A program made the translations under genes and the position numbers. The notes beneath the pieces are model-generated. The model did no database searches. It saw nothing but the letters and a program-made list of their open reading frames with translations, and was not told where the DNA came from. From the NCBI GenBank assembly GCA_022865265.1, contig JALIDO010000002.1, positions 1 to 38,306 on the forward strand: a stretch of DNA of 38,306 bases, given 5' to 3'. How positions within the stretch are numbered: the first letter of the stretch is position 1; the number at the start of each line of letters is the position of its first letter. The stretch is from Candidatus Nanohalarchaeota archaeon QJJ-5. GTDB taxonomy: Archaea; Nanohalarchaeota; Nanosalinia; Nanosalinales; Nanoanaerosalinaceae. Shown here piece by piece: positions 17,970 to 38,306 of the stretch.

Positions 17970-19019
17970 ATGACAATGCAGCTCGATTATGACTACAAGG
18001 CCTCATCATTAAAGCGTATCGAACTTTCGTCTGATGCACGGATTGAACAAAGTGGTCACAAGCCCCAGACCGGTGATGTGATCGCTGTCCGGATCACGGA
18101 ACAACGCGGGGAGTACGGAGAACTTGATCTTCCTGGCGGTGATCTCGTCGATCTCGAAGAAGGTGATGTCGTTCTTGGGTGTTTTGGTAATCGGGCTGGT
18201 GTGAAAGGCTATATCGGGACGGTTCCAGAACGGATCGAGGAAGGTGATGATGTCTTTTTCCTTGGTTCGGGAGGGATCTTTGGTGCGTACAAATCAGCGA
18301 CGAAAGAGCTTGGTCTTCCGTATCGAGCCGAATTCATCGGCTATGTATCTGATGGGGAGAATATTCTCAATATGAAGGATTTCGGTGTTCAGAGTCATGA
18401 GGATCTGGAGGAAGAACCAGTCATCGTGGCTGTGGTCGCCAGTCGTATGGATGCTGGAAAGACGACGATCGCCTCGGAGTTGATCGAAGGGTTGACAGAT
18501 GATGGCTATGCGGTTGGGTCTGTCAAGCTAACAGGATCGGCCCGTGAACGTGACCGTGTGCAGATGTATGAATCAGGATCGCAGGTATCGCTTGACTTCG
18601 TCGATGGCGGGATGCCCTCGACCGTTGATGATGCTGATCAGGTCATCGATACAGCCAAAGGGATTGTTGATGCAGCCTGGATGGAGACTGATCTCGATGT
18701 GATCGTGGCCGAGTTCGGTGCCGGGATCATCAGTAACTATAATGTGAAAGAGACACTGCAGGATCTCGATATTCGTGATCGTGTCGCCTCGGTGGTCGTT
18801 GTTTCACTGGATGTTGCCGGGGCCTATGGGGTCAAGAAGGTCTTATCAGAGATCGATTACGATCTTGATCTGGTCTCTGGCCCTATCACCGATACAACAG
18901 CTGGTGTTGAAAAGATCGAGGACACGGTCGGTGTTCCTGCATTGAATGCCTTCCGCGATGATGATGTCGAACAAGCGGTTTCTATCGTTGCTGAAAAGAT
19001 CGATTCCTTTGAAGACTAG
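17970..19019 (+). CDS. P-loop NTPase-fold protein with N-terminal beta-rich domain (DUF1611/cDPG-synthetase-like?)
   Basis: 349 aa. Walker A-like VVASRMDAGKTT is followed by KLTGSARE and DFVDGG. The family assignment is from memory of motif patterns only. Confidence 0.55.
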   Translation: MTMQLDYDYKASSLKRIELSSDARIEQSGHKPQTGDVIAVRITEQRGEYGELDLPGGDLVDLEEGDVVLGCFGNRAGVKGYIGTVPERIEEGDDVFFLGSGGIFGAYKSATKELGLPYRAEFIGYVSDGENILNMKDFGVQSHEDLEEEPVIVAVVASRMDAGKTTIASELIEGLTDDGYAVGSVKLTGSARERDRVQMYESGSQVSLDFVDGGMPSTVDDADQVIDTAKGIVDAAWMETDLDVIVAEFGAGIISNYNVKETLQDLDIRDRVASVVVVSLDVAGAYGVKKVLSEIDYDLDLVSGPITDTTAGVEKIEDTVGVPALNAFRDDDVEQAVSIVAEKIDSFED

Positions 19020-19909
19020 ATACCGCGTTCGGACTGGAACGCATGGGTCTTGCGGTAGATGAATTCCATGACTCTGTCTGCCATGTCGATCCCGACCGCT
19101 TCATCTGTAGATTCGACACCAGGTGACATGTTGATCTCACCGATATAGAAGCCATCCTCACCCTCCAGGATATCGATCCCACAGAAATCGAAGCCACACA
19201 GGCGTGCTGCTTTCCGTGATACTTCTCGCATCTCTTCTGTAGCATCGTGCTGTTGTCGTTCGCCACCGGCCGAGATATTGGATCGCCATTCGTCTTCACC
19301 GCCGACACGTTTGTAGGAGAAGGTCTCGTCTCCGAGGACGATCACTCTGATATCTTCACCTGGGTTCTCGATGTACCGCTGGAGTGAAACGTCTTGTTCG
19401 AACAATGTCAAGGTATCGATGATCGGGCTCAGGCCGGATTCGTCCTCTGCTCGCATCACGCCTTTGCCACCATAGCCGGAGATGAGTTTGATGATGACAG
19501 GATAGCCGAGTTCTTTGGCTGCTCGTTCGGTCTCTTTGGTCGAAAGCGTATATGTGGAATCAGGGACCGGGATACCGCCTTCTCCGAGGGTCTTGACGCT
19601 GTAGAATTTGTTCGAGGCAATGGTCAGCGAATCGGTCTCGAGCTGAGTGTATACATCATGTTCTTCCAGTATCTCTGGGATGTGTTCTCCATACAGGAGA
19701 TCGCTCCCAAGGAATCTGATAAAGACGGCATCGAACTCATTCAGGTTGGTGTTCCGATACATCAGGCGTGTGTCTTCTTCACCATAGACGATGCGGACAC
19801 TTTCAAGTGGAACACCGAGAACCGTATCGAAGTATTCTTTTCCTTTCTCGATGAAATGATGGTGTTGTGCAGATTTCTTGCCATAGATAACAGCACACTT
19901 AATCATCAT
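19016..19909 (-). CDS. RimK-family ATP-grasp ligase (alpha-L-glutamate ligase-like)
   Basis: Trimmed to ATGATG at 19909/19906, which overlaps the upstream TAA and is preceded by GAGGTGAT. Motifs NKFYSVKTL, GYPVIIKLISGYGGKGV, LQRYIENPGEDIRVIVLG, WRSNISAGG and CGIDIL...YIGEINMSPG. Confidence 0.85.
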   Translation of the reverse strand: MMIKCAVIYGKKSAQHHHFIEKGKEYFDTVLGVPLESVRIVYGEEDTRLMYRNTNLNEFDAVFIRFLGSDLLYGEHIPEILEEHDVYTQLETDSLTIASNKFYSVKTLGEGGIPVPDSTYTLSTKETERAAKELGYPVIIKLISGYGGKGVMRAEDESGLSPIIDTLTLFEQDVSLQRYIENPGEDIRVIVLGDETFSYKRVGGEDEWRSNISAGGERQQHDATEEMREVSRKAARLCGFDFCGIDILEGEDGFYIGEINMSPGVESTDEAVGIDMADRVMEFIYRKTHAFQSERGI

Positions 19910-20717
19910 CACCTCGCAGCATATCTGCCACTTTTCCATAGACGTTTTTGCCACTGTGTTCCTGGAAGAGATCGAGTCGTGGTTCGTTCTCGACGCCAAC
20001 GATAGTGTTGCCGATCAGTCGCACACGGCACATCTTGGTACCGATGGCCTGGGCGGTCTCGTTCACCGCTTTGCTCTGTTCTGTCGAGAGTTTGCTGTAC
20101 TGTATCTTGTCATTGTTATCGAGATGCCAGGCGTCGCCTTCGAGTTCGAGCGAGACGAGGTCGCCGTCGATATACAGGACATCATAGACATCGCCATCAA
20201 CGTATTCCTGGAGGATGATGACATTTTCCTCGTGGTTGGCCGACTGTGCGAATGAGTGAAGGTCATCGCTGTCATCGATGGTTTTCATACCGGCGCTTGT
20301 GAATTGTTCATACATCTTTGCCACGGCCGGGAACTCGATATCGTCTTCGATTTCGGTGAGTGCTTTCTCGGTCGAGAAGGCGATAGTCTGTGGGATATTA
20401 ACATCGCGTTGATGGAGTACATGGAAGAGATAATGGCGTTTCATCATCAGAAACAGCGCTGTCGAGTCCATGTTTGTCTGGATATGGTGATCCTGGATGG
20501 TCTCGAGGAATGTCTTAGCGTAGATGGCTGCCCGTGGCTCTGGATTCAGGTAGACAGCATCATACTCGGTGATCGGTGTGCCCTCGACGGCTGCTGTCGT
20601 GGTGGTGTCTTTGTGGCTGATCTTGGCATCGGCCAGTGAATAATGATCCCACTGATCGAAATGCTCGGTCAGTCCATCGACCTCGGTCTCGTTATTCGTC
20701 AGTATCAGTAAATTCAT
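19899..20717 (-). CDS. Divergent ATP-grasp-like paralog, possibly non-catalytic or specialised
   Basis: Trimmed to the ATG at 20717, giving a 26-nt overlap with the upstream gene. It retains the ATP-grasp landmarks FPAVAKM, ILQEYVDGDVYDVLYIDG and VGVENEP. It lacks the Gly-rich loop and the R..SN..GG motif. Confidence 0.6.
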   Translation of the reverse strand: MNLLILTNNETEVDGLTEHFDQWDHYSLADAKISHKDTTTTAAVEGTPITEYDAVYLNPEPRAAIYAKTFLETIQDHHIQTNMDSTALFLMMKRHYLFHVLHQRDVNIPQTIAFSTEKALTEIEDDIEFPAVAKMYEQFTSAGMKTIDDSDDLHSFAQSANHEENVIILQEYVDGDVYDVLYIDGDLVSLELEGDAWHLDNNDKIQYSKLSTEQSKAVNETAQAIGTKMCRVRLIGNTIVGVENEPRLDLFQEHSGKNVYGKVADMLRGDDD

Positions 20718-22293
20718 CGAGCTGTTTCTCACCTGTATCGTTCTTCTGGTCGGGTTTCCACACGCGGTCGACTTTTTCTTCTCGGCGCCACTGGTCGAGG
20801 AAGTCTTCGACACTGTCAGGCATGACGCTTTTCAGGATACGGCCCTTACGCATGATCTTCCGGAGTCGTACCTCGAGTGTCTTTGAGAGGCTATCGTAGT
20901 AGTTCTTGTCGGCGTAGATGAGTCCTTCCTTGATACGCCAGTATGCTGTTGTTCCTTCTGGCGCCATGATGATGTATCCGCGTTTCCGGTCTTCCCACTC
21001 CTGCATGGCATCCAGCATCTCGTCTTTGTCGACGTAATAGACACCGCCTGAGGTAGTATGGGCTGATGGATCGACGATCAGTAGTTCATCTCCCTCGACG
21101 CCCACGGACAAGACATAATGACCCGTGTTTGCCTGTGGGAACAACATCGGTTTGGCGAAGTTCGGGACAACCAGACCGCCATCGTTGAACCATGTCTTGA
21201 ACTCATCGCCGAGATCGGTGATATTGTCGTATTCGACCCACGCTGCACGGATTTCACCATCTGTCTCGTTTTCGATACCTTCGATCAGATCATCGGGCAT
21301 CACGCCTTTGCCGACTTCGGTACCGGTCACTTCTGCAAGTCGTCCTTGATCAATATCATAGCCAAACAGTGTTAGGGCCATTTCTGCTGATGCAGGGCCA
21401 CAGTATGAGGGCTCCTGAGCGACAAAGTACTTCTTGATATCTTCAAGTGTTTCGATATCGGCCTGGACGCGTTTGAACAGGACTTTCCGATCCATCAGTT
21501 CGCTGTTCGGTGTCAGCATGAAGTACCCGGAATCGGTCGAGATGGTGGTACCGAATGCGGATATGTCTCTGATCTCGCCTGTTTCGTCTTCAAACTTGAC
21601 CTTCTTCCCTGGTTTGAGGACATCTGAGCTCCTGAGATACAGGCCCGCTGCGTAGTTCCGGATCAGGTCTTTGAAGCCGAAGAAGGCCAACAGACCGATG
21701 ACTCCGATCATCCCGTATGATGCTGCGATGACAGCATTGCTCAAGATCTGGGACTGGATGCCCAGTTGAACGAGTGCAATATCGATGATGACGAGATACA
21801 GCAGTACCTTGAGTCCTTTGAACGACAGTTCCATGATCTTCGGCGAGAAGCCAAGTTCCTGGAAATACTTCTTCAGCCCCACTGTATCGATGAACCGCAT
21901 CATGAAGTTGACACTCAGGTTGATCACAAAGATACCAAGGATCACTGTCAGGATGGCCGTCATCACGATCGGTGCGTTCTCGATCACGGTCCGATAGAGA
22001 TCGCTGCTCGCTGGGGCATTCAGATACAGGAGGGCAAGACCGATAGTCGCGATGGTAAAGATATATTCGATCGGTTTGTGTGGTTGTTTATCTCTATTAC
22101 GGATTTTTTCCACGACATCCTCTGATGCGCGTCGCTGGTAGAAGTATTTGAATATTGTGCTGGCTATCCGTCCCAGTAAGAAGCCACCTGCTAGGATACC
22201 AAAGGTAACAAGTATACGGACGGGCGTTGGTTGTTCAAGAACGATGTTCAGGAATTCTGACATGGGCTGGGAGGTAAAATCCATAGACCACAC
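20692..22293 (-). CDS. MscS-like mechanosensitive channel fused to a C-terminal papain-fold (C39-like) cysteine peptidase domain
   Basis: N-terminal multi-TM region plus MscS TM3/beta-domain (FGFKDLIRNYAAGLYLRSSDVLKPGKKVKF..GEIRDISAFGTTIST). The C-terminal domain has QEPSYCGPASAEMAL (Gln and Cys), NTGHYVLSVG (His) and LLIVDPS (Asp). The start is the GTG at 22293 or the ATG at 22284. TATATAAA lies about 22 nt upstream. Confidence 0.8.
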   Translation of the reverse strand: MWSMDFTSQPMSEFLNIVLEQPTPVRILVTFGILAGGFLLGRIASTIFKYFYQRRASEDVVEKIRNRDKQPHKPIEYIFTIATIGLALLYLNAPASSDLYRTVIENAPIVMTAILTVILGIFVINLSVNFMMRFIDTVGLKKYFQELGFSPKIMELSFKGLKVLLYLVIIDIALVQLGIQSQILSNAVIAASYGMIGVIGLLAFFGFKDLIRNYAAGLYLRSSDVLKPGKKVKFEDETGEIRDISAFGTTISTDSGYFMLTPNSELMDRKVLFKRVQADIETLEDIKKYFVAQEPSYCGPASAEMALTLFGYDIDQGRLAEVTGTEVGKGVMPDDLIEGIENETDGEIRAAWVEYDNITDLGDEFKTWFNDGGLVVPNFAKPMLFPQANTGHYVLSVGVEGDELLIVDPSAHTTSGGVYYVDKDEMLDAMQEWEDRKRGYIIMAPEGTTAYWRIKEGLIYADKNYYDSLSKTLEVRLRKIMRKGRILKSVMPDSVEDFLDQWRREEKVDRVWKPDQKNDTGEKQLDEFTDTDE

Positions 22294-30599: not shown

Positions 30600-31433
30600 T
30601 TACGGGCTGACGATAGATTCGATACTTTTCATCGAATCCTGGAGCTTTTTGAGCCGTCCTTTGAGGTCGTTCTGGATGTCTTTGTCTTCTTCAAGTGTGT
30701 TCTGGAGACCGCCCATGTCCGTCTCGACGTCTTCGGACAGGTCCTGCATCTGATGGATGAGTTTTTTCGCTTCCTTGAATTTCTTCACTCGGATGAACAA
30801 CGGCCCTTTCTCGATGTCGGGGACGTTGATCTCTTTGGTCTTCGGTGCTTCAGGGATATCTGGACGGTTCCTGGATGTCTGTCCTGTTTGTTCATCGTTC
30901 CTCTCTGGCTCGAATCGTTCTTTCGCCTGGATCGGTTCTTCCTGGTCTGATGACGTACTTTCGTCTTGTGATGCTGCTCCTGGTGGCGGTGGAAGATCAT
31001 CGATCGAATCATCCGGTTCGGGTTCGGGACGATCTGGTGTCTGATGCTGTTCCTGCGGCCGTGCTGATCGTTGCTGTTGTCTTGCTTGTTCTTGCTGTGG
31101 CTTTTGTCGTTGTTGTGTATTTTGTTCGGACGATGCCTGTGGTCCTTGCTGTGATTGTGATCGTGACGGAGGATGCGAGGTCCGTTCCTGGCCCGGGCCA
31201 TCTTGCGGTAGTGATTCCTGTTGCTGTTGTGCTGGTCCGGGTCGTTGTTCTGACTGGTTCTGGCCGCCAGGTGGCTGGTCCTGTCTACTCTGAGGGGCCA
31301 CCGGGGTTGCTTGCTGTGATGTGTCCTGTGGTTCCTTCGATCCCTCGACCATGGAGCGGATTTCTTCGACGTTCTTGTCTATTTCTTCTTTTTTCTCAGA
31401 AGAGGACCCGAATAATTCGAACATAATGTACAT
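30600..31433 (-). CDS. Hypothetical protein with about 190-aa Gln/Pro-rich disordered region and C-terminal coiled-coil domain
   Basis: 277 aa. The start is the ATG at 31433 or 31424 (MFELFGSSS). The central region is Q/P/R/S-rich. The C-terminus is GPLFIRVKKFKEAKKLIHQMQDL...DLKGRLKKLQDSMKSIESIV. The opposite-strand ORF looks like an artefact. Confidence 0.6.
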   Translation of the reverse strand: MYIMFELFGSSSEKKEEIDKNVEEIRSMVEGSKEPQDTSQQATPVAPQSRQDQPPGGQNQSEQRPGPAQQQQESLPQDGPGQERTSHPPSRSQSQQGPQASSEQNTQQRQKPQQEQARQQQRSARPQEQHQTPDRPEPEPDDSIDDLPPPPGAASQDESTSSDQEEPIQAKERFEPERNDEQTGQTSRNRPDIPEAPKTKEINVPDIEKGPLFIRVKKFKEAKKLIHQMQDLSEDVETDMGGLQNTLEEDKDIQNDLKGRLKKLQDSMKSIESIVSP

Positions 31434-31470
31434 ATTTTAAGTGCAACTTCCTTTTAATGATTAGGTACCT

Positions 31471-33354
31471 GTGACGGTCACGACTGCACAACGAGGGCTC
31501 GCCCTTGCTATTCTGTTCGGTATGATCGCGGTTTTCCCAGCAGCTGCCTTCGAGATAGATACATTGCTATCAACACATGTTCTTGATGAAGGACAGAATG
31601 CGACATATGTCTTTACGGTACAGGGCGAAGGCGCAGGGGATGTATCTGTCGAGACATACGGCCCGATAGCCCGGTATCTTTCTATTGAAGAGGCCGAGTC
31701 TGGGCCTGATCTGTCGATCTATGATGTCACGTTGCTGGCTCCGACTGTCGATGAAGAAACATCATATGCTGGTGGTATCGCGATACAGGGAGAAAACGAA
31801 TCGCAAGATCATCCAGTCGAGATGCGGGTTGTGGATAGTGATGCGGTCTCCTTTGAGTTCTCGGTACAGTTTGTCTCGACCACGATACGTTCGGCCGAGA
31901 CCCCACAGGTGAATACCCAGATCCGTAACAATCAAGGGCGGAATGTAACGTTGAATGTTTCATATATATTCCAGCGTTCGTCAGATGCCGCTGAACTATT
32001 CAACACGACAGAGGCCATCGAGGTCGGCGGATCATCGGCGTCTCAGACTGTCGAGATCGATGATCTGGCTGAAGGATTGTCGGCAGGGTCATACTATGTG
32101 CGTGCCAATTTCATCTATGAGGATCGTGTGTATTCTGATATCGCTACGTTACGTGTGATCGAGCCGTTCTGGACACCGTTCCGGATCCGGCTTGTCTCGT
32201 TCCTTGCTATTGCTCTTCTCTTACTTGGTGGATCATGGAAAGGATATCAATGGTATCAGGAAAAGCGTGCTGAGGAGGCCCGTTATGTCTTCCCTGTCGA
32301 TTACAATGACCTGCCTGATGACGAAGGGGGTTACTGGATGGGGAAGGTTGCTGAGACGTCGAAGCAGTCATATATCGATCCCAGTGATCTGACAACACAC
32401 GCTATCGTGGCTGGGTCGACTGGTGCGGGCAAATCCGTGACTGCCTCTGTGCTGATCGAGGAAGCACTGGAACAGGATGTCCCGGTAGTTGTCTTCGATC
32501 CAACAGCACAGTGGACCGGGTTTGTGAAAGAGTGTCAGGATGAGAATGTGCTCGAACACTATGAACGATTCGGGCTCGATCCGGAAGAGGATACGAAACC
32601 ATACAAGGGTCTGATCAAGAAATTCGAGACAGAGGATGTCGATGATCTTGATTTCACGCGGTTGATGGAGCCTGGTGAGGTGACAGTGTTCACGCTGAAT
32701 CATCTCTCTACAGAGGAGTTCGATACCGTGGTCCGCGGGATCATCGATTCCCTGTTCGAGGTCGAGTGGGAAGAGTCGGCTGATCTCGAGCTCCTTGTGG
32801 TCTTCGATGAGGTCCACCGTCTATTGGAGGAGTATGGTGGCGAAGGCGGGTACAAGGCCCTGGAACGTGGTGCACGAGAGTTCCGTAAATGGGGTATCGG
32901 GCTTGTGATGGCTTCCCAGGTGACGGCTGACTTCAAGCAAGCTGTATCTGGTAACATCCTGACAGAGGTCCAGATGCAGACCAAGTCGATGGAGGATATC
33001 AAGCGGGCGGAGAGCAAGTACGGTGAACAGTATGCCAAACGGATCTCCTCGGTAGAGGTCGGAACAGGTATGATCCAGAATCCGGAATACAACGAAGGCC
33101 AGCCATGGTTTGTTGATTTCCGTCCACCGTATCATAATCCACACAAGATCCCTGATGAAGAGCTCGAGAAGTACTATGAATACACGGACTGGGCCGATGA
33201 GCTCGAGGACACGATCGATCAGATGGAAGAGGATGGTGAGGATGTCTATGATGAGCGACTGGAGCTCAAACTGGCCCGGGACAAACTGAAAGAAGGACGG
33301 TTCAAGATGGCAGAGGTCTATCTGAACTCACTCGATGAGAAGTTAGGGTCATGA
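31471..33354 (+). CDS. Membrane-spanning HerA/FtsK-superfamily (DUF87-like) ATPase with an extracellular beta-sandwich-like N-terminal region
   Basis: GTG start and a signal-like N-terminus (LALAILFGMIAVFPAAAFE). About 230 aa are beta-rich, followed by a TM (LVSFLAIALLLLGGSW). The ATPase has Walker A (GSTGAGKS), Walker B (LLVVFDEVH) and REFRKWGIGLVMASQ. Confidence 0.8.
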   Translation: MTVTTAQRGLALAILFGMIAVFPAAAFEIDTLLSTHVLDEGQNATYVFTVQGEGAGDVSVETYGPIARYLSIEEAESGPDLSIYDVTLLAPTVDEETSYAGGIAIQGENESQDHPVEMRVVDSDAVSFEFSVQFVSTTIRSAETPQVNTQIRNNQGRNVTLNVSYIFQRSSDAAELFNTTEAIEVGGSSASQTVEIDDLAEGLSAGSYYVRANFIYEDRVYSDIATLRVIEPFWTPFRIRLVSFLAIALLLLGGSWKGYQWYQEKRAEEARYVFPVDYNDLPDDEGGYWMGKVAETSKQSYIDPSDLTTHAIVAGSTGAGKSVTASVLIEEALEQDVPVVVFDPTAQWTGFVKECQDENVLEHYERFGLDPEEDTKPYKGLIKKFETEDVDDLDFTRLMEPGEVTVFTLNHLSTEEFDTVVRGIIDSLFEVEWEESADLELLVVFDEVHRLLEEYGGEGGYKALERGAREFRKWGIGLVMASQVTADFKQAVSGNILTEVQMQTKSMEDIKRAESKYGEQYAKRISSVEVGTGMIQNPEYNEGQPWFVDFRPPYHNPHKIPDEELEKYYEYTDWADELEDTIDQMEEDGEDVYDERLELKLARDKLKEGRFKMAEVYLNSLDEKLGS

Positions 33355-33399
33355 TATCAATACAAAGGCTTAAATTCCGCCGAGGGCTAAGGTGATACT

Positions 33400-35697
33400 A
33401 TGTCGGCATCCGAGGACGAACCGGAAGACGAAAACAAGGACGTGGAACAAACGACAGAGGAACTCGAGGGAGAGGAACAAGCGTCCGAAGAACCAAAGCA
33501 GGAAGCACCTGAAGAGCCTGTAGAAGATGAATCAAAACAGGCAGATGAACCGGAGGCGTCTGACGACGATGCTGAACAGGATGCAGAGGAGCAAGAAGAT
33601 GAAGATGCCGATGAGGACAAAAGCATCGGTGAGATCGCCAGGGAAGACCAGGATATCGACTGGGATCCACAACAGGCTGAAGAAGAGGAACAAGAACAGA
33701 TCACGGTCCAGGATCTGATGCGTGATCTGGAGAAGTTAGAGGGTCGGCTTGAATCGACTGAAGAGCGTGGTGAATCGTTCAATACACGTGTTTCTGATCT
33801 GTCTGAGCGTATCGGTGAGGTCCGATCGATGGTCCTCCAGCGTGAACGTGAGATCGATGAGATGAAGGCATCGGTCGATCGTGTGGAAGATATCTTCGAG
33901 GAGATCGAACCGGACCGGTTCAAAAAGCGTCTTTCGAAGCTGGATTCGCGTATCGATGAGCAGAAGGCCGAGATCGAACAGAATACGGACATGCTGGATA
34001 AGATGAAGCATGATGTTCGTGAGATACAGGATACGATCGAGAATGTTGAATCATTCGAGAATATCGCTGATCTGTATGAAGATGTTCAGGACAAGATCTC
34101 TGAGGTCGATGAGAAAAAGCGCTATGTCGATAAGATGGCATCGAAGACAGAATCGATCTTCGGGGAGCTGAAAAAGCGTCTGCCGGAGCTCGATACTGCT
34201 GTCGACCGCACTGAACAGCATGAGGAAATGTTGAAGGAGCAGATGAAAGATCTCGACAGTCTTTCGCTGACTGTCGAGTCGATGCTCACAGAGGAAGAGA
34301 TCGATGATAAGCTCGAATCGTTCGCTGAGTCAGAGGATTTCGGTGAGCGATTGCAGGAACTGCCGGCTTTTTCTGAATTGCAGGAAGAGATCGAGGAGAC
34401 ACGTGAATCGATCTCGCATGTCGAAAAGAACATGACAAAGATCACAGATGATATCAAAGAAGAAAAACGGGAGCTAGAAAAGAAGCTCGAGGATGAGCTG
34501 ACCTCGAAGATCCATGAGTTGGAAGATCGGTTCGGGAATATGCAGTCCGATATCAAGCATCAGCTCTCAGATAAGGCCGATGCCGATGATGTGATCGATC
34601 TGGAGCGCGATGTTGAAGGGATGGATTATGAAATAGGAGAGCTTCAGGATGAGCTTGATCGAGTTGAAGAGGCGACAGCTGTTCTTGATGAGCTTCGTAC
34701 GGATATAAGCGAGATTGGATCCCGTGTAGATGAACTGGAAGAGCGCCAGAAGGATATGAATGATATCGAGGCCATTATCCAGAGTTACACATCGATGGAT
34801 GATGTCTCAGCGATCAAAGACGATGTCGAAGAGATCCGTGACCGTGTTGAGGAGGCAGAAGGTGTTCTCGAGGAGGTGAACCAGCTCGGATCACGGCTCG
34901 ATTCGCTTTCGACGACGATTAATCAGATGCAACAGCGTGATGATGATCTGGATGATACGGTCTCGATGCTCGATGATGCTTTGGACAATCTTGAGGACCG
35001 TGTATCAGATCTTTCCTCCCGGGCACGGAAGATCGATGATCTCCAGCCACGTGTGAAAAAGCTCTATGGATCGATGGGCGATCTTAAAGAACGGCAGGAA
35101 TCGATCCTTGATGCTGTCGATCTCAATGGCGATATGAACCAGCTCGAGGATCAGGTCGATGATGTCACACAGGAAGTGAACCAGCTCAGGTCCCGGTTGC
35201 AAGATCTTTCATCCAGTATGGATACTGTACAGGACGAGACATTGGCAGAGATGCAGGATGATCTGGCGACGGTGGATGAGCTTTCGCAGAAGCTGGATTC
35301 AGTCCGTGATGATCTCCATCAGCTATCGATGCATGTCGATGAGGTCCAGCAGGAGACGGCTGACCACGATGAACTGGAACAATTGATTGCCCAGCAGGTC
35401 GATGCGATGCGTAAAGAGGTCAAAAAAGAGGTGAAACAGGAGCTACGGGCTGAGATCGAGAGTTCGATCGTTGATGTACGGGAGCCACCATCACCACAAG
35501 AGCAGCAAAACGGTGCCCGTGATCGTGTCGAGACGAAGCTCCAGCAGGCGAACAAGGCCCTTGAACAAGGTGATTCTCAGCGGGCCAGGGAGCTCTATAA
35601 GGAACTGCTTCCATTGTACCGTGATATGGATGATTCGAAGACAGATCTGGCGTCCGATGTGAATGATCTGTACAGCCGGTTGACACAGGAGGGATAG
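33400..35697 (+). CDS. Hyperacidic 765-aa coiled-coil protein
   Basis: AGGTGAT SD upstream. The first about 100 aa are Asp/Glu low complexity. These are followed by about 600 aa of heptad-like repeats (…DELDRVEE…, …VDELEERQ…, …LEDRVSDL…). The C-terminus carries a TPR/MIT-like hairpin. Confidence 0.75.
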   Translation: MSASEDEPEDENKDVEQTTEELEGEEQASEEPKQEAPEEPVEDESKQADEPEASDDDAEQDAEEQEDEDADEDKSIGEIAREDQDIDWDPQQAEEEEQEQITVQDLMRDLEKLEGRLESTEERGESFNTRVSDLSERIGEVRSMVLQREREIDEMKASVDRVEDIFEEIEPDRFKKRLSKLDSRIDEQKAEIEQNTDMLDKMKHDVREIQDTIENVESFENIADLYEDVQDKISEVDEKKRYVDKMASKTESIFGELKKRLPELDTAVDRTEQHEEMLKEQMKDLDSLSLTVESMLTEEEIDDKLESFAESEDFGERLQELPAFSELQEEIEETRESISHVEKNMTKITDDIKEEKRELEKKLEDELTSKIHELEDRFGNMQSDIKHQLSDKADADDVIDLERDVEGMDYEIGELQDELDRVEEATAVLDELRTDISEIGSRVDELEERQKDMNDIEAIIQSYTSMDDVSAIKDDVEEIRDRVEEAEGVLEEVNQLGSRLDSLSTTINQMQQRDDDLDDTVSMLDDALDNLEDRVSDLSSRARKIDDLQPRVKKLYGSMGDLKERQESILDAVDLNGDMNQLEDQVDDVTQEVNQLRSRLQDLSSSMDTVQDETLAEMQDDLATVDELSQKLDSVRDDLHQLSMHVDEVQQETADHDELEQLIAQQVDAMRKEVKKEVKQELRAEIESSIVDVREPPSPQEQQNGARDRVETKLQQANKALEQGDSQRARELYKELLPLYRDMDDSKTDLASDVNDLYSRLTQEG

Positions 35698-35700
35698 GTA

Positions 35701-36027
35701 GTGCCGGCCCCGAATGTCGAGTGCACACGTTGTGGCCACCGATGGTATGCTGAGGAATTTGCGGAGCGGGATATCGTTCCACACTACTGTCCTCGTTGTT
35801 ATCGTGAAGATATCCAAGAGATTCCAGAACCACCAACTGCTATCGAAAAACAGGTCAGGAAGGCACGTGATCAGGTCAGTGTGTGGCGGAAACGGTATGC
35901 GGAATACAGTAAACAGTTCACCTTATGGCGTGAGAATCATCGTGAATTGATCGAATTTGTCGGGTTCTTTTCAGGGATGTTCATCATCTTGGCGATTATC
36001 TATGTCTTTATCTTCGTCTGGGGCTGA
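35701..36027 (+). CDS. Tail-anchored zinc-ribbon protein
   Basis: GTG start 3 nt after the upstream stop. C-x2-C-x17-C-x2-C (CTRCGHRW...YCPRCY), a charged helix and a C-terminal TM (FVGFFSGMFIILAIIYVFIFVW). Confidence 0.6.
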   Translation: MPAPNVECTRCGHRWYAEEFAERDIVPHYCPRCYREDIQEIPEPPTAIEKQVRKARDQVSVWRKRYAEYSKQFTLWRENHRELIEFVGFFSGMFIILAIIYVFIFVWG

Positions 36028-38306
36028 TCAGACATCGAACTGTTCGCCGTGTTTACGGAGTTCCCTGTTGAATGCACGGGCTTTCTTGGTCACTTTGTCC
36101 GTGTTCTCGATCGATGAATCTGTCTTCATCCGGTTGTAGAGTCGCTGCAGGTTCGATAAGGTGTTCAAAACTTTTTCTGTGTTCCCTTTCTTCAGCTGTG
36201 CTTCTGAAAGATCGAGCAACAGATAGACCCGCATTGCCATGCCCAGTTCACCGAAGAACTGGTTCCAGAAGCTCATCGATGGTGGCTGTCCATGGAGTTT
36301 GGTGTAGAGATCTTTTGCCTTGTTGTAGTGTTCGATGACCTTATCGAAGTTGTCCTGATCGAATTCCTCCTGCATCTGATCGAGCTGGTCCTGGAGTTGT
36401 TTCTTCCGTATACGTTCACGAACCGGTGTGATGATATCCCCGCGATATCGATAAATACCACCGGCTGCCAGCAGTACTGTGAGAAGTCCAAGGATCGGCA
36501 CGAGTGGGACAGGAGTCCCCCTATCCACCGGCTGTTCGGGTTGTCGATAGACGCGATATGTTTCGATAGCTTGCTGTTCTTCTTCACCTTCGCACAGCAC
36601 AGTGACCGTGTTCCATCCAACATCGAAGGAGCTATTGTAGGTATATGGTGGCTGGAAATTCCTTTCGATCGTCTGGTCGTTGATATCGAGTGAACACTGG
36701 TTTGCATTGCTTGTCTCGATGGACAGTGGTTGATAGCTGGATGAGATATTCCGGATGAGGTCCGGCATCATGATCGTTGGTGGTGGCGGGGTCTCCGGGG
36801 CAGGGAGTGAGTGGTTTTTCATCACCACGATCGGTGGATCGAACTCGAACGATCCATTTGCCTGTGTTCGGTAGGTGATATTGATACCTGTTCCCTCGGT
36901 GATGTTCTTTGTCGTGTATGCGATCTGTGTCGGGTTTGTCGAGAGGACGAGTTGTTCCATCTCTTCGGTCTCGCGACTGAAATCATCATAGCTGCTGTAT
37001 TGTTGTGGAATGGTATCGAAGATCATGATCTCTTCGAGGAAGTCTGTACAGCTGTATCTGAGTGTCAATGTGGTATTCTTGTAGCCCTCGTCAAGCCCAC
37101 GGTACCGTCGTACACCTGATAGACACTGGTCACGTGATGCCGTGTATGTCCGACTGACCATCGGATCTCGGGTGTCAAGGATCGCTCCCAGCGAATCACG
37201 GAGCTGTGGATGCTGGTCGAGTTGGTCAGCAAGAGCGGAACCGGCCTGATGGCTGAAATCATAGGTCTCATTCAGGATGGTTGGGTCTGGTTCCGGTGGT
37301 GTGATCGGGCCTGATCCACCGCCGCCTGATCCTGACCCACCATTTCCACCGCCGCCTGTGTCTTCTTCTTCGACACTGATGGTGGTGCTTGTCACATCGC
37401 CCCAGCCGCCGTCTGATTCTGCATTACAGGTGATTGTGTATTCGCCAGCACTATCTGCTGATACGCTGCTGGTCAGATTGGCACTTGTCAGTGGTGCAAT
37501 TGTGTCTATCTCTTTTGAACTGTTACCCTCGATGGTAAGACTGTCTGTCTCAAGGGTGATGTTCACGTTGACAAGATCGGCACCATCTGCAACGACATTC
37601 TCGACATCACAGACCAGGTCGGTCGAATCGCCAGGGTTGAGGCTACTCGAGGTTACATCGAGGGTGATATCCCCGTTGAGATTCGAGAAGAAGTAGCTGA
37701 ATCCCTGCCATGCGGCTGTGATCATCGATGCCTGCTGATCTGGGTCATCACACTGATAGCTTTGGTTCCAGATATCACAGGTCCGATTGGTGCCCGTGTC
37801 CAAAAGATCATACCCGGTATCGTGATAGGTCTCATTGTCTGTCTCACTGAACGCGGTCATACTGGTCTCGAAGGTCTGTGCGTAGGGGTATGGATCACAG
37901 TCATCGGAGATACAGGTATGTACTGTGTCGTTTGTCGTCGTGTTCACTGCTGTCTCGGCATCTGTGTTGGCTGTTGTCCCGGCTACATCCCAGAGGGCGG
38001 TTGTCAGTTCTGGATCCGAGGGGCTTGATGTGGCTGCGGAGACGAGCGACGATGCCTGATCGCGGTATGTTGTGTTACCGGTCGCAAGGTAGGCAGCACG
38101 CATGCCATCGATCATCGCTCCCTGTCCACGCTCACTGCCACAGCTATGATCGCCACTCCAGGGATCACAGTCATTTGGTGTGCCGTGGGTGTAATTATAG
38201 GCAAGTTCGCGGACGGTCTGGTTCCCGGTCAATGTGTATGTTTCCCACAATGCCTCGATGATCTTACCCTGACGGACCGAGCCATTCGGTGTCCGTGTTG
38301 CCTGGC
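36028..38306 (-). CDS. Large surface protein, 5'-truncated by the window edge: helical-repeat ectodomain + Ig/CARDB-like domain + Gly-rich linker + TM + cytoplasmic helical tail
   Basis: The reading frame stays open upstream of the TTG at 38250 to the end of the window. It has repeated TGN..Y(R/H)D.A helical motifs and a beta-rich segment (ITLDVTSSSLNPGDSTDLVCDVENV...). The linker is GGGGNGGSGSGGGGSGPITPPEPDP and the TM is ILGLLTVLLAAGGIY. The tail is about 138 aa. Confidence 0.75.
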   Translation of the reverse strand, partial: QATRTPNGSVRQGKIIEALWETYTLTGNQTVRELAYNYTHGTPNDCDPWSGDHSCGSERGQGAMIDGMRAAYLATGNTTYRDQASSLVSAATSSPSDPELTTALWDVAGTTANTDAETAVNTTTNDTVHTCISDDCDPYPYAQTFETSMTAFSETDNETYHDTGYDLLDTGTNRTCDIWNQSYQCDDPDQQASMITAAWQGFSYFFSNLNGDITLDVTSSSLNPGDSTDLVCDVENVVADGADLVNVNITLETDSLTIEGNSSKEIDTIAPLTSANLTSSVSADSAGEYTITCNAESDGGWGDVTSTTISVEEEDTGGGGNGGSGSGGGGSGPITPPEPDPTILNETYDFSHQAGSALADQLDQHPQLRDSLGAILDTRDPMVSRTYTASRDQCLSGVRRYRGLDEGYKNTTLTLRYSCTDFLEEIMIFDTIPQQYSSYDDFSRETEEMEQLVLSTNPTQIAYTTKNITEGTGINITYRTQANGSFEFDPPIVVMKNHSLPAPETPPPPTIMMPDLIRNISSSYQPLSIETSNANQCSLDINDQTIERNFQPPYTYNSSFDVGWNTVTVLCEGEEEQQAIETYRVYRQPEQPVDRGTPVPLVPILGLLTVLLAAGGIYRYRGDIITPVRERIRKKQLQDQLDQMQEEFDQDNFDKVIEHYNKAKDLYTKLHGQPPSMSFWNQFFGELGMAMRVYLLLDLSEAQLKKGNTEKVLNTLSNLQRLYNRMKTDSSIENTDKVTKKARAFNRELRKHGEQFDV
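37315..37358. repeat. 14-nt direct repeat (TCCACCGCCGCCTG) with 30-nt period inside the Gly-rich linker coding region
   Basis: Copies at 37315-37328 and 37345-37358, read directly. The in-frame spacing is 10 codons. Confidence 0.6.

Follow-up and report, generated by a model that had tools for sequence, protein, structure and literature searches.

The window analysed in this study is a stretch of 38,306 nucleotides (nt) from Candidatus Nanohalarchaeota archaeon QJJ-5 (assembly GCA_022865265.1, contig JALIDO010000002.1, positions 1 to 38,306), and the locus under consideration occupies its end. Five open reading frames (ORFs) are found there. An ATPase gene (31471-33354, forward strand, GTG start, 627 amino acids, aa) is followed on the same strand by the genes of a coiled-coil protein (33400-35697, 765 aa) and a tail-anchored zinc-ribbon/transmembrane (TM) protein (35701-36027, 108 aa). 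The gene of a surface protein (36028..38306, reverse strand, stop codon 36028-36030) converges on these three and is open at the window end, with at least 758 aa readable from 38304. A gene for a glutamine- and proline-rich (Q/P-rich) protein (30600-31433, reverse strand, 277 aa) diverges from the ATPase gene. The five ORFs are not chance ones because each has homologues in related genomes. Their coordinates, given in a preliminary description of the sequence, were reproduced exactly by the ORF listing. The gaps reported there also match the sequence: the Q/P-rich and ATPase genes are 37 base pairs (bp) apart, 45 nt separate the ATPase gene from the coiled-coil gene, another 3 nt precede the zinc-ribbon gene, and the stop codons of the zinc-ribbon and surface-protein genes abut (0 nt). 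Based on the results presented below, the locus is very probably the core operon of a SPEARE-type archaeal surface-ATPase system.

The three forward-strand genes show spacing of the translationally coupled type, and Shine-Dalgarno-like motifs precede the second (GGTGA) and the third (GGAGG) of them, which is compatible with a single operon. The divergent spacer (31434..31470) is AT-rich and carries two TATA-like TTTTAA elements. It is likely to be the promoter region of the ATPase operon, in which case a leaderless or near-leaderless transcript would be produced.

The ATPase and its SPEARE relatives

The ATPase starts with a signal peptide (residues 1-26, 31471-31548), followed by two ectodomains resembling immunoglobulin (Ig) or fibronectin type III (FnIII) domains (residues 27-233, 31549-32169), a TM segment (residues 235-255, 32173-32235), a RecA-type core with Walker A GSTGAGKS and Walker B VVFDEVH (residues 291-560, 32341-33150) and three C-terminal helices (residues 561-627), all on the forward strand. 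Hydrophobic segments were detected at residues 8-30, i.e., the signal peptide, with a cleavage-like site between AAA and FE, and at 235-255. The AlphaFold2 (AF2) model, with a pLDDT of 84, consists of two beta-sandwich domains (28-230), a long TM helix (236-269), a RecA-type ATPase and three terminal helices, with just two short strands between the TM helix and the RecA core. In the predicted ectodomains, N-glycosylation sequons are roughly three times as frequent as expected, both in the ATPase (five, with 1.6 expected) and in the convergent surface protein (20, with 7.2 expected), and none occurs in the predicted cytoplasmic parts of the two proteins; this distribution supports the predicted topology. 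The N-terminal region of the ATPase is therefore predicted to be extracellular and its motor cytoplasmic, with a single TM segment between them, as the preliminary description had proposed. The other possibility considered there, a cytoplasmic N-terminal region, disagrees with both the model and the sequons, which place it outside.

This whole plan is kept in an alignment of 24 homologous sequences, which come from Nanohaloarchaeota, Aenigmatarchaeota, Woesearchaeota and Nanoarchaeia. The conserved elements are the signal peptide, an ectodomain of about 200 aa, a PFWT motif, the TM helix, the juxtamembrane RYVFPxDY, Walker A GSTGxGKS, Walker B VFDEVHRL, AREFRKWG, HNPHK and a C-terminal helix with LKEGRFKMA. 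More than 60 residues, those of the Walker motifs included, are invariant in these diverse sequences, and the catalytic motifs of the ATPase are intact. AREFRKWG and HNPHK (residues 469-475 and 555-559) as well as RYVFPxDY are invariant across phyla; HNPHK sits where the C-terminal helices join the RecA core, and nothing in HerA obviously corresponds to it. Mean pairwise identity across phyla is 63% in the ATPase core and 19% in the ectodomain. The best homologues are from Nanohaloarchaeota, the closest named one being that of Ca. Nanoanaerosalina (72% identity over a partial ATPase).

A Foldseek search with the ectodomain, which had been recommended in the preliminary description, returned tandem Ig/FnIII proteins such as the Vibrio biofilm scaffold RbmA and the WxL-interacting protein, WxLIP (9i25, 4be6), and the profile match in the Protein Data Bank (PDB) was 9i1y at 6e-4. 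The likeness lies in two tandem beta-sandwich domains at the cell surface and is one of fold only (12-14% identity); RbmA and WxLIP carry no ATPase.

SPEARE proteins were described as giant nanohaloarchaeal surface proteins whose cytoplasmic C-terminus is the most conserved part and was read as a type III restriction enzyme; a 655-aa version was also noted, together with homologues in Woese-, Aenigm- and Micrarchaeota and Altiarchaeales (Hamm et al. 2019, PNAS, PMC6642349). The same domain was later reinterpreted as a VirB4/TraG-like ATPase, a second ATPase gene (SVXNc_0299, BNXNv_0297) was recorded immediately downstream of the giant one, and a "straw" resembling a type IV secretion system (T4SS) was proposed (Reva et al. 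2023, Front Microbiol, PMC10266531). The adjacent short "VirB4/TraG-like" ATPases of SPEARE systems are SVXNc_0299, BNXNv_0297 and AQV86_02330 (of SG9). Along its full length the window ATPase is 49-51% identical to a 623-aa protein of Ca. Nanohalococcus occultus (P0015) and to one of Ca. Nanohalovita (P0012). P0015 is encoded directly 3' of the 9,409-aa giant gene in the corresponding locus (L082), and was taken to be SVXNc_0299 because it occupies the position given by Reva et al.; P0012 was equated with BNXNv_0297 by analogy. From these comparisons the window ATPase would be the orthologue, at about 50% identity, of SVXNc_0299 and BNXNv_0297.

The giants themselves carry this combination of two Ig domains, TM helix and ATPase at their C-terminal end. 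Residues 37-626 of the window ATPase share 49% identity with the C-terminal module of SVXNc_0300 (L082, 9,409 aa), and its identity is 50% both to the giant genes of three further loci (L083, L084 and L099) and to SVXNc_0299. Its topology is that of a SPEARE protein, with a signal peptide, two Ig-like domains, one TM segment and a cytoplasmic ATPase homologous to that of the giants, the ectodomain being minimal (207 aa). In longer homologues the extra length is always N-terminal and the two membrane-proximal Ig domains are retained, so the 627-aa protein represents the minimal core of the family. It is well supported that this ATPase is a short SPEARE paralogue, the minimal form of adhesins of 2,000-9,500 aa. 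The module is accordingly not a newly seen system, as the preliminary description had presented it, since its ATPase belongs to a published family. None of the serine protease, laminin-G/toxin and restriction endonuclease domains that gave SPEARE its name, and that Reva et al. (2023, PMC10266531) dispute for the giants, was found in the 627-aa ATPase, and the name does not fit the part that is conserved. The downstream order, a coiled-coil gene and then the gene of a 108-aa zinc-ribbon protein, is also shared with SPEARE loci. Unlike in the cultivated SPEARE loci, no giant gene lies directly upstream, where the window has the divergent Q/P-rich gene.

A scan of one genome per species yielded at least 572 ATPase loci, of which the best 80 were analysed. 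Giant and short ATPase genes stand in tandem in 12 of these 80 loci (among them L001-L003, L010, L011, L016, L020, L026, L028, L039 and L065). Within a locus, the giant and short ATPase modules are mutual closest relatives with 65-97% identity (96.6% in L003) and are often closer to each other than to orthologues in sister genomes. This suggests concerted evolution by gene conversion, or repeated duplication, and would fit mixed rings or a need for compatibility between the two modules.

Family placement of the motor

In Pfam the ATPase matched DUF87 (6e-13) and HerA_C, both above the cut-offs, and matches to ResIII and DUF87 were found in all 24 family members. Its top PDB sequence match was HerA (4d2i, 4.8e-10). 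In Foldseek HerA filled ranks 1-5, with a probability of 1.00 to HerA hexamers, and the first T4SS coupling protein, TcpA, appeared at rank 43. The RecA-type core, the invariant Walker motifs and the HerA-like fold place the protein among the ring-forming ASCE P-loop ATPases of the HerA/FtsK superfamily. NCBIfam models for VirB4, TraG/TraD, CedB, CedD, HerA and anti-phage HerA all scored 11-40 bits, with cut-offs of 366-970. The ATPase is nearest to HerA and best called a distinct membrane-anchored HerA-clade family. Neither published label of the cytoplasmic domain, "restriction endonuclease" or "VirB4/TraG", was reproduced.

With HerA proper the ATPase shares the RecA-type core, the DUF87 and HerA_C signatures, the best matches by sequence and fold (4d2i, 9x1m, 8woc) and, presumably, the hexameric ring. 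It would then be conceivable that it is a cytoplasmic repair or anti-phage module (HerA-NurA, Sir2-HerA, DUF4297-HerA or MADS-like) whose hydrophobic segments are incidental, the more so as HerA complexes of repair and defence were the best matches in the PDB and in Foldseek and PADLOC matched mad8 (53.7 bits, 5e-15) and HerA models (51.9 bits, 1e-14). However, the scores of 20-54 bits compare with family cut-offs of 800-970, e.g., 34.8 bits against 800 for NF040937 and 28.2 against 970 for NF040819, the HerA models for double-strand-break repair. The HAS barrel, the N-terminal domain of HerA, is absent from the AF2 model, and the family conserves a signal peptide, a sequon-rich Ig ectodomain and a TM helix. 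Unlike HerA, the ATPase is membrane-anchored with an extracellular N-terminus, and no NurA, Mre11, Rad50 or effector gene adjoins it. No NurA-type or other nuclease partner was seen in L081, L082 and L099 either; nor was there a Sir2, DUF4297 or methyltransferase partner, and the neighbour is a coiled-coil gene in 73 of 80 loci. Architecture and neighbourhood effectively refute the repair or defence explanation, which is left with a very small probability. The grouping with HerA-NurA repair envisaged in the preliminary description is likewise not borne out. Membership in a defence system was rejected because the PADLOC matches of the ATPase are at superfamily level only and no effector (Sir2, DUF4297, etc.) is paired with it; the other four proteins had no specific PADLOC match, and the coiled-coil protein matched just SMC-like coiled-coil regions.

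A second alternative is that proposed by Reva et al. (2023, PMC10266531), a bona fide T4SS with the ATPase as its VirB4/TraG homologue and the giant protein as an effector-injecting "straw". It draws on the Nanohalococcus co-culture, in which methylation at the canonical motif of the symbiont was raised in host DNA and bridges were seen by cryo-electron tomography. The weak Pfam matches TrwB_AAD_bind (23.3 bits, covering 43 P-loop residues only) and T4SS-DNA_transf (16.3 bits) also point this way. On the other hand, the VirB4 N-domain PF03135 (CagE_TrbE_VirB), published for SVXNc_0299 and BNXNv_0297, was not reproduced, being absent at E<=0.01 from all 24 members, P0012 and P0015 included. The VirB4_CagE model (TIGR00929) scored 11.5 bits against a cut-off of 643, the TraG and TraD models 11-25 bits against 366-686, and HerA outranks every T4SS ATPase by sequence and fold. 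No VirB2/3/6/8-like or relaxase genes appeared in the Pfam tables of L081, L082 and L099 or among the recurrent neighbours, whole genomes not having been searched. A genuine T4SS is considered unlikely on these grounds.

The Ced ATPases of Sulfolobales, CedB and CedD, are also archaeal membrane-bound members of the HerA/FtsK superfamily acting at cell-cell contacts (PMC11823120). CedD is the best NCBIfam match of the window ATPase (1.4e-10), but the match covers the P-loop region only, and the scores (40.4 bits against 600 for CedD, 13.2 against 700 for CedB) do not reach membership. The Ced ATPases have no ectodomain, and no CedA-like polytopic channel or CedA1/A2 pilin genes occur in the Pfam tables of L081, L082 and L099, although they were not searched for directly. 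FtsK/SpoIIIE membership was not reached (PF01580, 21.1 bits against 24 over 45 residues); the ATPase has a single TM segment after an ectodomain and no gamma domain. A functional analogy for the ATPase and its partner is offered by the type VII secretion ATPases EssC/EccC with their helical WXG100/LXG substrates. In both cases an FtsK-like ATPase anchored in the membrane is encoded with long, entirely helical partners, whose N-terminal helical region is conserved and whose C-terminus varies. Beyond the superfamily the sequences are unrelated, the coiled-coil protein's weak matches to WXG100/ESAT-6 are generic, and its C-terminal modules look like cytoplasmic adaptors and not like toxins.

Partner genes and neighbourhood

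In the 80 loci a coiled-coil gene, recognised by a profile of its conserved segment, directly follows the last ATPase gene in 67, lies within two genes in six more and is missing in seven, the median gap between the two genes being 9 nt. With reversed sequences as a control, the best E-value of the profile was 3e-5. These loci span Nanohaloarchaeota, Aenigmatarchaeota, Woesearchaeota and Hydrothermarchaeota, the last of which are not DPANN archaea. The genes are thus not scattered in related genomes, a possibility raised in the preliminary description. Of the trio of ATPase, coiled coil and zinc ribbon, whose conservation it proposed to check, the first two are widely conserved together, and the zinc ribbon is confined to Nanohaloarchaeota-type loci.

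The coiled-coil protein comprises an acidic, probably disordered N-terminal tail, a conserved helical segment (residues ~90-305, 33667-34314), a rod of variable length and a C-terminal helical hairpin of about 60 aa (residues 707-764, 35518-35691). It had been called giant and hyperacidic; the acidity is real (31% Asp+Glu), but "giant" is generous for 765 aa. The conserved segment of about 200 residues aligns across 32 sequences and contains the motifs EKLEGK, EEIGELRS, KSFENL and KVExIFSEL and an invariant Pro. Since the similarity is confined to this one segment with its motifs, it is not compositional. A globular domain was considered for this segment and rejected, as the AF2 model, on which no fold search was made, consists of just two long helices that kink at the invariant Pro. 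Its Pfam and PDB matches are generic coiled-coil ones, none above the cut-off. An exhaustive HMMER search found the segment in 412 representative clusters at E<=1e-10, mostly near the N-terminus, and all named members are annotated as "hypothetical protein". A word-indexed protein search returned just 1 and 5 matches and missed the window's own protein, the exact full-length sequence of which is absent from the searched collection. Indexed searches can therefore badly under-report coiled-coil families (1-5 relatives against 412 clusters).

The partners range from 230 to 1,122 aa and are variable beyond the conserved segment. One of two modules is found at their C-termini: the helical hairpin of about 60 aa (A..L..G....A..LY..L ... 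LY..L; profile E-values of 1e-17 to 1e-23) or a UBA-like module, G(Y/W)..E(I/L)...L...GW....I. Examples of C-terminal modules are 35518-35691 in the window and those of L006, L055, L062, L056, L016, L028, L036, L039 and L065; Nanohalobium-type partners have neither. Rosetta-stone fusions of the ATPase with the coiled coil were not found, all longer ATPase homologues extending N-terminally.

The zinc-ribbon protein has two CxxC motifs (C8, C11, C30, C33), which are invariant together with G12 and W15, and a C-terminal TM segment (residues 82-108, 35944-36024). Its gene lies 3' of the coiled-coil gene in the window, L001, L002, L003/L084, L081, L082, L083 and L099, and weakly in L004. Apart from the window, the full trio is thus present in seven independent loci of the Nanohaloarchaeota type and, weakly, in one more. 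A reverse scan of metagenomes from the zinc ribbon recovered two full-length relatives, both encoded right after giant ATPase, short ATPase and coiled-coil genes; twelve other matches were short CxxC stretches and were disregarded. Since the zinc ribbon occurs only in Nanohaloarchaeota-type loci, the trio is an elaboration, in this lineage, of a much wider pair of ATPase and coiled coil. Neither partner is mentioned in Hamm et al. (2019) or Reva et al. (2023), and both are newly described here.

The recurrent additional neighbours are more coiled-coil proteins and small proteins with one or two TM segments, with no enzymes among them. Proteins of 270-340 aa with one or two predicted TM segments are encoded between the ATPase and coiled-coil genes in L025, L031, L045, L047 and L051, and a pair of 1-TM proteins (about 75-90 and about 105-270 aa) upstream of giant genes in L005, L018, L030, L061 and L070. 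No Pfam match was found in the examples tested. These small membrane proteins may fill the role of the nanohaloarchaeal zinc-ribbon TM protein. In Hydrothermarchaeota the ATPase and coiled-coil pair occurs with a giant ATPase gene (>3,000 aa) in L047, L069 and L051. L047 is a 1.9-Mb contig of Ca. Hydrothermarchaeum profundi, where a second coiled-coil gene and then a CheR methyltransferase gene follow 3'.

The closest relative of the window locus is L081, on a 477-kb metagenomic contig, where the ATPase is 59% identical and the gene order is the same: divergent Q/P-rich gene, ATPase, coiled coil, zinc ribbon and convergent surface protein. The surface protein of L081 (L081:14250-18404, 1,384 aa) is 32% identical to that of the window, the tail included. 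The window protein consists of Cys-rich alpha-helical repeat modules, an Ig-like region, one TM segment (residues 596-619 of the partial protein, 36448-36519, reverse strand) and a conserved helical cytoplasmic tail of 139 aa (36031-36447, reverse strand). A match to the GH127 catalytic domain is borderline (24.3 bits, cut-off 24.9). The N-terminal part (residues 1-200 of the partial protein encoded at 36028-38304, reverse strand) contains repeated modules of about 150 aa with the motif C-D-x-W-x-G-D-x(2)-C-G-x(3,4)-G-Q-G-x-M-I. In six loci of the Woesearchaeota type (L016, L026, L028, L036, L039 and L065) the same modules occur in proteins of 1,250-1,920 aa whose genes adjoin the coiled-coil gene. 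The surface protein, which is glycoprotein-like, is an associated component, linked in the closest relative and, at the domain level, in these six loci. A convergent surface protein of the 1,384-aa type is linked in the window's lineage only. The preliminary description was right about its convergence, single TM segment and cytoplasmic tail; linkage of the whole gene was shown in L081 only. It was also considered whether the tail equals the coiled-coil C-terminal hairpin. This was rejected, because a hidden Markov model of 17 coiled-coil tails, run against 603 sequences, gave E=0.0036 for the window and E=6.2 for the orthologous tail of L081; the ATPase C-terminus was not matched.

In L081 the surface-protein gene is followed, after about 100 bp, by the start of a divergent gene of 9,544 aa (18511-21869, continuing past the locus). 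By analogy, a giant gene probably lies just beyond the window, which would end about 2 kb short of it. A longer contig of the source was not found, the contigs encoding an identical zinc ribbon being just 1.3 and 2.2 kb.

At the other side of the operon, the Q/P-rich protein consists of a low-complexity Q/P-rich region and a conserved 85-aa C-terminal domain (30600-30854; VPDIEKGPLFIRVKKF...), for which Pfam and NCBIfam gave no match. In the three genomes where it is recognised, i.e., in the window, L081 (9048-9866) and L082 (20260-20958), this domain adjoins L7Ae/S28e. In L082 it is 7 kb from the ATPase, beside the ribosomal genes. L099 has the same ribosomal cluster and a 259-aa ORF at the equivalent position, and tblastn did not recover the domain there. 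Given the separation in L082 and the ribosomal neighbours, the Q/P-rich protein was rejected as a probable non-member of the system, contrary to the preliminary description. Its gene probably belongs to the L7Ae, S28e and aIF5B cluster, which an inversion appears to have placed beside the ATPase.

The rest of the window holds chromosomal housekeeping genes (CysRS, P-type ATPase, Kae1, aIF2-gamma and TrkH), together with aIF5B, L7Ae and S28e, which were assigned by comparison with L081 and L099. Between 16705 and 22293 there are an AstE/AspA-like deacylase, a 349-aa ORF that Pfam does not match, an ATP-grasp ligase of the RimK type and a protein of 533 aa that contains a C39-like peptidase domain. 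This cluster is possibly the first candidate system of the preliminary description.

Possible function and implications

The conserved set could form a ring motor that couples ATP hydrolysis to surface adhesins through the movement of a polymer; this reading is held tentatively, at somewhat less than an even chance. The ATPase would form a hexameric ring under the membrane, like characterised HerA/FtsK relatives, and the ring would probably be mixed with the giant paralogue encoded nearby. The coiled-coil protein would dock on the ring through its conserved N-terminal helical segment of about 200 residues, and its rod of variable length would extend into the cytoplasm, ending in a small adaptor module. 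Each protomer would gain a second TM helix and a cytoplasmic binding domain from the tail-anchored zinc ribbon. Hydrolysis of ATP would then drive a polymer, be it nucleic acid or an unfolded protein, through the ring or against it, at the surface or at the host contact site, and this movement would couple the cytoplasm to the adhesin ectodomains. Cytoplasmic bridges have been seen to link nanohaloarchaea with their hosts, and the membrane-bound HerA/FtsK-type ATPases CedB and CedD drive DNA import in Sulfolobales (PMC11823120).

Several observations weigh against such a motor. Its main weakness as a translocation model is that no polytopic channel, pilin, relaxase, nuclease or peptidase is conserved beside the ATPase, and the "translocation apparatus" of the preliminary description is a tentative reading. 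A single TM helix in each protomer offers little from which to build a conduit, and the giant paralogue is not within the window. Furthermore, the family occurs in the 1.9-Mb Hydrothermarchaeota contig (L047), and Hamm et al. (2019, PMC6642349) add Altiarchaeales. It is thus not confined to episymbionts or to DPANN archaea, and its role cannot be purely symbiont-host transfer. The preliminary description presumed an episymbiotic nano-sized archaeon, and the organism is indeed a nanohaloarchaeon, but the family is not specific to episymbionts.

An alternative reading does without a conduit. The ring might bundle and anchor giant and short adhesins, with the coiled coil as a cytoskeleton-like tether, and ATP might be spent on assembling, tensioning, retracting or releasing the adhesin cluster and not on a substrate crossing the membrane. 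Such an adhesin anchor or mechanical scaffold would account for a conserved set that has single-pass TM segments only, and in which all conserved partners are coiled-coil proteins of 230-1,122 aa ending in small adaptor modules. It would also suit ectodomains that are adhesin-like, resembling RbmA and WxLIP in Foldseek, and hypervariable, as well as the occurrence of the family in non-symbiotic Hydrothermarchaeota. However, the 63% identity of the motor across phyla and the invariant juxtamembrane motifs suggest a more specific catalytic task, and every HerA/FtsK-superfamily ATPase characterised to our knowledge translocates nucleic acid or energises secretion. The scaffold is therefore regarded as a serious but rather doubtful possibility.

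A bolder extension of the polymer-moving ring motor is that the ATPase, the coiled coil and the small membrane partner are the engine of a distinct archaeal trans-envelope machine, independent of T4SS and Ced. In it a HerA-like ring fused to adhesin ectodomains, with the coiled coil as obligatory stalk or adaptor, would build or power the cytoplasmic bridges between DPANN symbionts and their hosts for the exchange of DNA, protein or lipid. This is speculative and, on the whole, improbable.

The results bear on the means by which DPANN archaea hold on to their hosts and draw material out of them, for which the SPEARE giants are the most cited candidates. Their conserved cytoplasmic domain had received two conflicting annotations, and the HerA-clade assignment contradicts both. 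The ATPase family is known in the literature and functionally uncharacterised. What is added here is the HerA-clade identity of the motor, a coiled-coil partner family of 412 representative clusters annotated as "hypothetical", and the nanohaloarchaeal zinc-ribbon partner, both partners being new. The locus represents the minimal SPEARE module, with 627 aa compared with up to 9,500 in the giants. Expression, modelling and localisation are far easier with a set of three proteins than with an adhesin of 1 MDa, and the function of the family thereby becomes testable.

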